64,000 bases of DNA from Escherichia coli. GTDB lineage: Bacteria; Pseudomonadota; Gammaproteobacteria; Enterobacterales; Enterobacteriaceae. Shown here piece after piece: positions 20,701 through 23,700 of the stretch. The stretch is from NCBI RefSeq assembly GCF_017348835.2, contig NZ_CP071375.1. One strand, 5' to 3'. The stretch's first letter is position 1, and each line of letters begins with the position of its first letter. The position numbers are program-made.

Positions 20701-23700
20701 CAACCTTGTCGAATGAATCTCTGATTTCTGGAATCTTCTCAACAAGTGCAACGCATCGTCGGAAGTCTGCTGCGTCATGGGGAGCGCCGAAGTGATGACC
20801 ATAGATATTCTTTTTCAGGCCACATGCGATTGAGGCAAGAGTTGCGCTACTGATGCCAACATCGCCAGTCGATTGCCATTTCAAAACCTTCATAGACAAA
20901 TCTGACATTTCTTGTCTCCAATAAAAAAAACCTCCATCAGGCGGCTTGGTGTTCTTTCAGTTCTTCAATTCGAATATTGGTTACGTCTGCATGTGCTATC
21001 TGCGCCCATATCATCCAGTGGTCATAGCAGTCATTGATGTGAACCGCCCCGGAAATCCTGGAGACTAAACTCCCTGAGAAAGAGGTAAACAGGATGACTA
21101 AAAATACTCGTTTTTCCCCCGAAGTCCGTCAGCGGGCGATTCGTATGGTTCTGGAAAGTCAGGATGAATATGACTCACAATGGGCGACAATTTGTTCCAT
21201 TGCTCCAAAGATTGGCTGTACGCCGGAGACTCTGCGTGTCTGGGTTCGCCAGCATGAGCGGGATACCGGGGGCGGTGATGGCGGGCTCACCACCGCTGAA
21301 CGTCAGCGTCTGAAAGAGCTGGAACGTGAAAATCGTGAACTGCGCCGCAGTAACGATATCCTTCGCCAGGCTTCCGCTTATTTTGCGAAGGCGGAGTTCG
21401 ACCGCCTCTGGAAAAAATGATGCCACTGCTGGATAAGCTGCGTGAGCAGTACGGGGTCGGACCGGTATGCAGCGAACTGCATATTGCCCCGTCAACGTAT
21501 TACCATTGTCAGCAACAGCGACATCATCCGGATAAACGCAGTGCCCGTGCGCAGCACGATGACTGGCTGAAGAAAGAGATACAGCGCGTATACGATGAAA
21601 ATCACCAGGTATACGGTGTGCGTAAAGTCTGGCGTCAGTTGTTACGGGAAGGTATCAGAGTGGCCAGATGCACTGTGGCACGTCTCATGGCAGTTATGGG
21701 ACTTGCCGGTGTTCTCCGGGGTAAAAAGGTCCGCACTACCGTCAGCCGGAAAGCCGTTGCCGCATGCGACCGCGTAAACCGTCAGTTCGTGGCAGAACGT
21801 CCAGACCAGTTGTGGGTGGCTGATTTTACCTGGGTAAGCACATGGCAGGGCTTCGTTTATGTGGCGTTCATCATTGATGTGTTCGCCGGATACATCGTGG
21901 GATGGCAGGTCTCATCATCCATGGAAACAACATTCGTGCTGGATGCACTGGAGCAGGCGTTGTGGGCCCGTCGGCCGTCCGGCACAATCCATCACAGTGA
22001 TAAAGGTTCTCAGTATGTATCGCTGGCCTACACGCAGCGGCTTAAGGAAGCCGGATTACTGGCATCAACAGGGAGTACTGGCGACTCGTATGACAACGCG
22101 ATGGCGGAGAGCATCAATGGTCTTTACAAAGCGGAGGTAATACACCGTAAGAGCTGGAAAAACCGGACAGAAGTGGAACTGGCCACACTCACGTGGGTGG
22201 ACTGGTATAACAATCGACGATTGCTGGAAAGGCTGGGCCATACTCCCCCGGCAGAAGCAGAAAAAGCTTATTATGCTTCCATCGGAAACGATGATCTGGC
22301 AGCCTGAGTTCACAGATAAAACACTCTCCAGGAAACCCGGGGCGGTTCATCTGCTCAGTGGGATGCCGGACATTACCGGACAACTGCTGCGGCACCTCAA
22401 CTCCGATTTGATGAACGCAATATTCACAAGCAATGCGTGGTGTGCAACCAGCACAAAAGCGGAAATCTCGTTCCGTATCGCGTCGAACTGATTAGCCGCA
22501 TCGGGCAGGAAGCAGTAGAGGAAATCGAATCAAACCATAACCGCTATCGCTGGACTGTCGAAGAGTGCAGGGCCATCAAGGCGGAGTATCAACAGAAACT
22601 TAAAAAACTGCGAAACAGCAGAAGTGAGGTTGCATGAATATCTACGAAAGAATTGATGGCAGCAAATACCGAAATATTTGGGTAGTTGGCGATCTGCACG
22701 GATGCTACACGAACCTGATGAAAAAACTGGAGACGATAGGATTCGACACCAAAAAAGACCTGCTTATCTCGGTGGGCGATTTGGTTGATCTCGGTACAGA
22801 GAACGTAGAATGCCTGGAATTAATCACATTCCCCTGGTTCATAGCTGTACGTGGAAACCATGAGCAAATGATGATTGATGGCTTATCAGAGCGTGGAAAC
22901 GTCAATCACTGGCTGCTTAATGGCGGTGGCTGGTTCTTTAATCTCGATTACGACAAAGAAATTCTGGCTAAAGCTCTTGCCCATAAAGCAGATGAACTTC
23001 CGTTAATCATCGAACTGGTGAGTAAAGGAAAAAAATATGTCATCTGCCACGCCGATTATCCTTGTGATAAATACGAGTTTGGAAAGCCAGTTGATCATCA
23101 GCAGGTAATCTGGAACCGCGAACGAATCAGCAACTCACAAGACGGGATCGTGAAAGAAATCAAAGGCGCGGACACGTTCATCTTTGGTCATACGCCAGCA
23201 GTGAAACCACTCAAATTTGCCAACCAGATGTATATCGATACTGGCGCAGTGTTCTGCGGAAACCTCACATTGATTCAGGTACAGGGAGAAGGCGCATGAG
23301 ACTCGAAAGCGTAGCTAAATTTCATTCGCCAAAAAGCCCGATGATGAGCGACTCACTACTGGCCACAGTTTATTGGTTTTCGTAACTGAGTCATTTTATT
23401 ATTTTATTGCAACTTTTAATCTTTTATAGTGCGAAATAAATGGAGCTGGCATTCATTTCGCACTTTATGTTTTTGTTGGACTTATGTTATTTTGATTGAA
23501 TTCAATTCAGTTAAAAAAAGAAGGTGATTGCTCCATTTATAAATGAATAGTCATCCCCTGTCTTGAATTCTGATGTTACTTTATTAAATGCTAGTGTGAA
23601 GGCTACAGGTGCATACCCAATTGTTGCGCCAACTTGATATTCATCAACAGTTTTGTTTAGCGATACTGTTGTTTGTTTCGTCTGTATTGTTTTTCCTTCG

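Follow-up and report, generated by a model that had tools for sequence, protein, structure and literature searches.

How an intact insertion sequence (IS) came to lie exactly where a lambdoid prophage has lost its early region is the question raised by a 64,000-nucleotide stretch of Escherichia coli DNA (contig NZ_CP071375.1, assembly GCF_017348835.2), referred to here as the window. The IS, an IS3-family element of the IS629/IS1203 type, occupies 21040-22349 on the plus strand (1,310 bp), and its terminal base is joined directly to codon 110 of the phage gene ninG at 22349/22350. As judged from alignments, the window corresponds to a genome like that of E. coli PE164 (pig, Nanjing; NZ_CP114128.1) minus 6,029 bp next to the IS.

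The IS and the flanks of the junction

The element was recognized from its open reading frames (ORFs), its inverted repeats, and its profile and Rfam matches. Two plus-strand ORFs, orfA (21094-21420; Pfam HTH_Tnp_1) and orfB (21417-22307; Pfam HTH_21 and rve), overlap at an A6 slippery run on the same strand (21412-21417), which lies within an ALIL frameshift pseudoknot (21375-21491; Rfam RF01497, 121.5 bits). This is the two-ORF layout with a programmed -1 frameshift by which the IS3 family is defined. OrfB alone scored 311 bits against the NCBIfam IS3 transposase model NF033516 (cut-off 160). Reading of the sequence placed the start of the left inverted repeat at 21040 and the end of the right one at 22349; the repeats are 25 bp long and imperfect, with 22 of 25 bases complementary, the first 13 perfectly so, and the ends are TG...CA. 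As its two ORFs are uninterrupted and its frameshift signal and terminal repeats are preserved, the IS would still be able to act. The original prediction, made from the sequence alone, had placed an IS629-like element at 20909-22640; the element is real and intact, and the wider span adds remnants of orf55 and ninG to it.

The IS is 100% identical to the copy in PE164, 98.9% identical to the copies in E. coli E2865, ~97% identical to a copy in ET82 annotated as “IS629 family”, and 96.0% identical in nucleotides (97.3% in OrfB) to an O157:H7 copy labelled “IS1203 family” in RefSeq. Isoforms are defined in ISfinder by at least 95% nucleotide identity to a named reference element. On the basis of the annotated genome copies compared, “IS629-like” is a fair name. 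PGAP labels it merely as “IS3 family transposase”.

The left flank (19106-21039/21040) matches positions 25019-26952/26953 of phage 434 (OL657226.1) at 99.7% identity, with the base at 21040 being ambiguous with the first base of the IS. Lambda was rejected as the reference phage, since its left match is split (27727-29109 and 29106-29221) and lacks ORF114, whereas 434 matches both flanks continuously. The lambda match falls into two pieces because ORF114 (20564-20908, minus strand; “ORF114” in M60848, CPT_434_33) is specific to 434, and lambda has no match for positions 20489-20924. The hypothetical ORF114 protein had no match in the Pfam search of the window proteins. The flank ends at 434 position 26952, equivalent to lambda 29220/29221, within orf55 (CPT_434_34 in 434, lambdap35 in lambda), of which a 3' remnant of 103 nt (20937-21039, minus strand) is cut by the left end of the IS. 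The flank had been described as lambda sequence just distal to xis; the location, just past int-xis-ORF114, was right, and the closest phage is 434.

On the right, homology resumes at 434 position 38709 (lambda 42756), which is exactly ninG codon 110, and continues over 22350-27065 (434 38709-43418) at 99.1% identity. The ninG remnant (22350-22637, plus strand; codons 110-204 and the stop, covering positions 105-192 of 193 in the Pfam NinG model) consists of 95 in-frame codons, 95% identical to residues 110-204 of 434 NinG. Its stop at 22637 overlaps the start at 22634 of ninI (22634-23299, plus strand), an intact gene for a lambda-type Ser/Thr phosphatase of 221 amino acids (Metallophos), so that the predicted reading, in frame to the NinG C-terminus and into the phosphatase, was borne out. 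The alignment with lambda that had been proposed as a check was run and gave lambda 29221 as the left endpoint and 42756 as the right one. The absent span amounts to 13,534 bp in lambda coordinates, in agreement with the ~13 kb first estimated, and to 11,756 bp in 434 coordinates; it was lost in several events, the last of which removed 6,029 bp. None of exo, bet, gam, N, cI, cro, O, and P is left in the 64-kb window, as had been stated.

The triplets flanking the IS are ATG on the left and TCT on the right, as in the earlier reading, and the target-site duplication of 3-4 bp that would be expected is missing because the deletion adjoins the IS.

The pre-deletion allele in E. coli PE164

Over the whole 64-kb window, PE164 differs by 3 substitutions. 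In the numbering of the extracted PE164 prophage region, which is used for all PE164 positions below, window 11460-22349 corresponds to 1-10890 and window 22350-25323 to 16920-19893, both at 100.000% identity, and the outer parts of the window match at 99.98-99.998%. Of 5,426 complete E. coli genomes, PE164 alone has the left IS junction of the window (240 of 240 bases). Directly after the right end of the IS, PE164 keeps 6,029 bp (10891-16919) that are missing from the window. Of gam, this segment holds the first 34 nt; kil, cIII, ea10, ral, and sieB come next, then cI and cro, a cII that is truncated and fused to ninE, then ninF, and codons 1-109 of ninG, which is intact through the joint point of the window. 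The immunity region is not of the 434 type. The window is read as the derived, deleted state because the extra DNA of PE164 follows the usual lambdoid order of genes and makes ninG whole.

At the joint, the window reads ...GGTTCA/TCTGCT, while PE164 reads ...GGTTCA/CCTCAAG at the end of the IS and ...CTCACG/TCTGCT inside ninG (slashes mark the break). The number of shared bases at the break is zero; there is no microhomology, and the deletion is flush with the last base of the IS. A 3-bp microhomology of TCT had been considered, as the PE164 match seemed to run three bases past the IS, and was ruled out by the CCT of PE164. The diagnostic junctions are CCCGGGGCGGTTCATCTGCTCAGTGGGATG for the window and CCCGGGGCGGTTCACCTCAAGACGATCCTG for PE164.

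An IS-adjacent deletion is recognized by an endpoint that coincides with the last nucleotide of an IS which is itself kept whole, and by a pre-deletion allele with the same opposite junction, and both were found. A chance coincidence of the endpoint with the IS terminus is very unlikely, of the order of one in thousands. The original prediction had inferred from the unlike triplets an IS-associated deletion or a recombination between IS copies and not a simple insertion, and the PE164 allele, with the same IS and left junction and 6,029 bp more, supports this directly. A search for a second IS629 copy or an intact version of the prophage had also been proposed; the window contains a single IS copy, and a fuller version was found in PE164, with O and P already gone.

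Between the N-side genes and cI, at 13621-14927, PE164 carries a gene with a DUF1828 domain and a hypothetical gene, in the position where lambda has rexAB. Both are absent from the window, and they may represent an exclusion or defence pair.

Stepwise origin of the gap

In PE164, the IS is followed directly on its right by 434 position 30759, which lies in gam, so that 434 26953/26954-30758, ~3.8 kb that include exo and bet, had already gone in an earlier IS-flush deletion. PE164 is also without O, P, ren, and ninB, and the joint of its cII::ninE fusion lies at ~16093-16427 with no IS there. Since O and P were lost via this IS-free joint in the PE164 lineage, the replication module was not lost at the junction of the IS with ninG. 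The absence of both repressor and replication genes had been noted correctly, and only the attribution of the latter to this junction has to be revised. What the last step removed was the remaining immunity region with kil, cIII, sieB, cI, cro, and the truncated cII. As read from these alignments, the ~13-kb gap is the product of at least three decay steps, namely the older IS-flush deletion, the cII::ninE deletion, and the last deletion of 6,029 bp.

A second deletion joint, without an IS, was located near 27065 (27060-27070) by comparison with 434. Homology leaves 434 at position 43418, ~100 bp of the end of a lom-like gene follow, and the alignment picks up again at 434 19576, which equals window 27165. 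The joint, identical in PE164, has taken out the lysis, cos, head, and tail genes; to judge from the comparison, it is separate from the steps described above and older. The prophage is far more degraded than originally stated.

Other IS629-type copies at this site and in ninG

IS629-type insertions or IS-flush deletions in the early region occur in at least eight further E. coli prophages at att-lambda (nine IS copies). Simple insertions with a target-site duplication were found in E2865 (copy 1; left end at 434 26807, right resuming at 434 26804, duplication CATA), CEA106S (lambda 29196 and 29194, ATC), Z1322HEC0003 (434 27251 and 27248, GTGC), and strain 1613 (434 27384 and 27382, GAT). IS-flush deletions, with no target-site duplication, were found in C325 (left end at lambda 29211, right at lambda 39162 in O), UTME-9 (lambda 29267 and 40387, in ren), O145:H28 (lambda 29354 and 40298, in ren), and MMC-J-0105 (lambda 29706 and 38740, in O), and copy 2 of E2865 joins the sieB region to the cII region in the same manner. 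For ET82, an IS-adjacent deletion from just beyond orf55 to Q' was identified by annotation only. The IS629-family copy at 5412-8990 of the ET82 extract is split by a group II intron with a frameshifted ltrA reverse transcriptase/maturase gene.

The two copies in E2865 are identical, directly oriented, and 6 kb apart in a prophage of the same family. Two further strains carry simple IS629/IS1203 insertions in ninG itself, both in the same orientation as the IS of the window. One lies 52 bp upstream of the window site, in the Stx1a prophage of O157:H7 PNUSAE147324 (extract 2811-4120), and the other 39 bp downstream, in PNUSAE014970 (NZ_CP104639.1, ~255797-257344).

At least ten distinct IS629-type positions fall within ~600 bp just beyond xis/orf55. 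Four of them are plain insertions with 3-4 bp duplications. At least six others, PE164 and the window among them, are deletions whose far end lies in gam, O, ren, ninG, or Q. In all, 2,488 genomes contain the orf55 segment, at 3,211 places, and 30 genomes carry an IS on the same strand within ~500 bp of it; as the search joined same-strand pieces only, these counts cover one relative orientation and say nothing on orientation bias. Independent IS events near orf55 exceed the expectation under uniform insertion roughly 10-fold. This is what the known bias of IS629 towards prophages would lead one to expect, 62% of the O157 copies lying in prophages or prophage-like elements (PMC3271280). It is tentatively proposed, as a reading we consider doubtful, that the few hundred bases just beyond xis are a recurrent landing zone for IS629-type elements, from which independent IS-flush deletions repeatedly erase the immunity and replication region. 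The pattern could equally be the outcome of the known prophage bias of IS629 together with the fact that insertions are tolerated where the DNA is dispensable. A further possible reading is that loss of the early region was selected for.

Search for the junction in other genomes

The right junction of the window occurred in 0 of 5,426 complete E. coli genomes, and as an exact 30-mer it had 0 matches in metagenome and species-representative collections. Exact look-up also showed it to be absent from 12 contigs encoding the same 66-amino-acid NinG' ORF; in these, an intact upstream ninG continues or the contig ends before the junction, and the alignment start at 22350 that they share merely reflects the part missing from the window. 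OkiPb01684 and DX6 were rejected as carriers of the joined IS, ninG', and ninI, as their annotation gives ninG-ninI followed by the IS, and the search had mis-ordered the pieces. In four draft O157-type genomes, ~3.4 kb with an HNH_3 endonuclease gene and a gene of 496-590 amino acids replace the 3' end of ninF and the 5' end of ninG, and gene callers report the same 66-amino-acid NinG fragment there as in the window.

An intermediate with a second IS at the ninG site was sought with a synthetic junction query, and none was present among the complete genomes. The predicted left junction of such a second IS is GGAACGCTCACGTCTTGAACCGCCCCGG; in ninG, a directly oriented second copy would read ...CTCACGTCT/TGAACC.

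Mechanism of the 6,029-bp deletion

The deletion very probably depended on the IS, by one of two routes. For an IS-adjacent deletion in one step, we put the chances at about even; it is slightly favoured over the two-step route considered below, as so small a divergence from PE164 is most simply read as one step and the search for an intermediate gave none. The OrfAB transposase would cleave the right end of the IS, and the free 3'-OH would attack the same strand ~6 kb to the right, inside ninG, in place of the attack beside the opposite IS end that gives the normal figure-of-eight. Replication of the attacked strand would then produce a daughter chromosome with the IS and without the intervening DNA. 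The earlier IS-flush deletion at gam in the same lineage, the recurring IS-flush joints at the att site, and the use of ninG as an IS target all speak for a single step.

Precedents for such deletions are available from the literature. Those adjacent to IS629 are reported to range from a few nucleotides to more than 40 kb (PMC9943667), and a “sloppy strand transfer” model is proposed for IS629 in section 11 of bioRxiv 10.1101/2023.06.07.543989. Deletions adjacent to IS150, also of the IS3 family, made up 14 of the 83 IS events in the long-term evolution experiment with E. coli and measured 14 bp to 48.9 kb (PMC11708052).

Several points weigh against a single step. A two-step route leaves the identical final sequence, and one genome cannot separate the two. 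The norm in the IS3 family is copy-out-paste-in with regeneration of the donor, and “sloppy” transfer by itself would need an extra resolution step according to the same section of bioRxiv 10.1101/2023.06.07.543989. The right junction was found in no other sequence and rests on a single assembly.

In the two-step route, which we rate as somewhat less probable and still a serious contender, a second IS in the same orientation would have entered ninG at the TCT triplet by a local copy-out-paste-in hop, followed by recombination between the direct 1.3-kb copies. One IS and 6 kb would be lost, and what stayed would be a single IS, bordered on the left by the flank of the old copy and on the right by that of the new one, with one copy of the duplication. 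This yields the exact structure observed, with an IS-flush joint, unmatched flanks, and no microhomology, and it does so by the standard IS3 pathway with no special resolution step. The direct, identical copies 6 kb apart in E2865 are an intermediate of the type required, the same-orientation insertions in ninG of other strains, 52 bp upstream and 39 bp downstream, show that IS629-type elements do enter this gene, and the about 30 IS copies in the PE164 genome suggest active transposition. However, two events would be needed within 3 substitutions per 64 kb, and the predicted intermediate junction is in no complete genome, which is weak evidence as intermediates are short-lived.

A third possibility, that the IS-excision enhancer (IEE), a PrimPol-like protein of pathogenic E. 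coli, acted with the transposase and microhomology end joining took place beside the IS, is very improbable. IEE together with IS629 deletes IS-flanking DNA from a few nucleotides to more than 40 kb (PMC9943667; PMC9397093), and iee is often found in strains with a background of this sort, with type III effectors and ~30 IS copies. What defines IEE, though, is the excision of the IS, and the end-joining model predicts resected ends at microhomologies. It fits poorly because the IS is still present, intact at 21040-22349, and the break falls precisely at its last base with 0 bp of microhomology.

We give just as little credence to an assembly artefact or mixed culture, in which the 6,029 bp would really be present and have been dropped beside a 30-copy repeat. 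The junction is indeed unique to this sequence, and IS-rich regions are hard to assemble. PE164, the nearest genome, is available as assembly version.2, and the sequence may stem from an earlier version or a sister isolate. Repeat misjoins, however, link two repeat copies, and an artefact is unlikely because the right endpoint lies in unique sequence, in a part of ninG with no IS-like bases in PE164; the joint is also base-perfect at the IS terminus, the ninG frame is kept, and the flanks show 0 differences from PE164 over 13.9 kb. Least credible of all is that no deletion took place and that the IS met ninG by mosaic exchange with another prophage or phage, or that PE164 later gained 6 kb: lambdoid phages are mosaic and the PE164 immunity region is unlike that of 434, but both flanks are 100% identical to PE164 up to the joint, a later gain would need both an exact restoration of ninG and an end that coincides with the last base of the IS, and the joint is in no other prophage searched.

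Condition of the prophage remnant

The prophage occupies attB-lambda, with ybhC to its left and ybhB to its right, and is bounded on either side by a lambda att core. The left chromosomal flank contains ybhJ (15348-17633) and ybhC (17774-19057), and the right one ybhB (34387-34863). From the attL core (19104) to the end of the attR core (34296), ~15.2 kb remain. The attL core of the lambda/434 site (19104-19117, plus strand) reads GCTTTTTATACTAA and has a 1-bp deletion (T5 versus T6), which it has in common with PE164 and UTME-9. In the other eight E. coli prophages checked and in lambda and 434, the core is GCTTTTTTATACTAA (T6), and the attR core of the window (34282-34296, plus strand), after which ybhB follows, has this same sequence. 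From established knowledge of lambda Int recombination, the 1-bp deletion in attL probably impairs Int-mediated excision.

The remnant contains int, xis, the IS, ninG', ninI, lpxR, Q, side tail fibre genes, nleH, cif, and a frameshifted espJ. The int gene (19191-20261, minus strand) is an ORF of 356 amino acids for a tyrosine integrase in the region 99.7% identical to 434, annotated in PE164 as tyrosine-type recombinase, and the excisionase gene xis (20239-20457, minus strand; 72 amino acids) was assigned from its ORF and comparisons. The lipid A deacylase gene lpxR (23511-24470, minus strand) is cargo that also occurs in phage 434. The effector genes nleH, cif, and the frameshifted espJ lie at 28877-29767, 29991-30839, and 33231-33883, respectively, as assigned from the PE164 annotation and Pfam. 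Segments of 434 left in the window are 25019-26952/26953, 38709-43418, and 19576-21315, plus fragments. Complete modules for immunity, replication, lysis, and morphogenesis, by which a functional prophage is recognized, are lacking. As the repressor, pL/pR, the replication origin, and the late genes are all missing, the remnant should not be able to be induced, replicate, or form particles, and compared with PE164 it would be without cI immunity and SieB-type exclusion.

Relation to known systems and significance

The prophage of PE164 shares with that of the window the chromosome context, the left IS junction, ninI, lpxR, Q, stf, nleH, cif, espJ', and the T5 form of attL, and differs in keeping the 6,029 bp right of the IS with cI, cro, sieB, kil, and an intact ninG. 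Phage 434 shares int-xis-ORF114-orf55 (99.7%) and the run of ninG-ninI-Q'-lpxR-ylcG-Q82-type Q with downstream genes (99.1%), and it likewise goes from ninG directly into ninI with no ninH. In contrast to the window, 434 is a complete 48-kb phage; the window is without 434 26953/26954-38708 and ~43419 through cos to ~19480 and has a different effector cargo near attR.

The IS resembles IS629/IS1203 of enterohaemorrhagic E. coli in its 1,310 bp, its orfA/orfB -1 frameshift with ALIL, its TG...CA inverted repeats, and its 96.0% nucleotide identity to an O157 copy. A prophage location and the loss of flanking DNA are further likenesses (Ooka 2009 and Kusumoto 2011, as cited in PMC9943667, PMC9397093, and PMC3271280). 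Unlike the O157 element, the window copy is a diverged variant (OrfB 97.3%), and its host background is pig-derived and type III effector-carrying, not O157. The IS150 deletions (PMC11708052) are alike in the retained IS copy, existing or new, the missing target-site duplication, and a deletion that abuts the IS end; they arose in a controlled lineage with known ancestors, whereas for the window the ancestor has to be inferred from a natural isolate that is almost identical to it.

IS-adjacent deletion in a decaying prophage is textbook material and already known in kind. Defective lambdoid prophages of enterohaemorrhagic E. coli lose genes for regulation, replication, and morphogenesis and keep int/xis and cargo such as lpxR, nleH, and cif. 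The prophage of the window is one more decayed example and nothing unusual, but its last step is documented. What is added is a clean before/after pair, separated by 3 substitutions per 64 kb, together with the recurrent pattern at the locus. The pair is a convenient system for distinguishing one-step from two-step deletion by IS3-family elements, and the junction of the IS with ninG is a clone-specific marker, usable for typing within the PE164 lineage. The cargo genes lpxR, nleH, and cif are now fixed in the chromosome. If the region just beyond xis were a recurrent landing zone, IS-anchored deletion would be a convergent route by which effector-carrying prophages are locked in place in different E. 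coli lineages.

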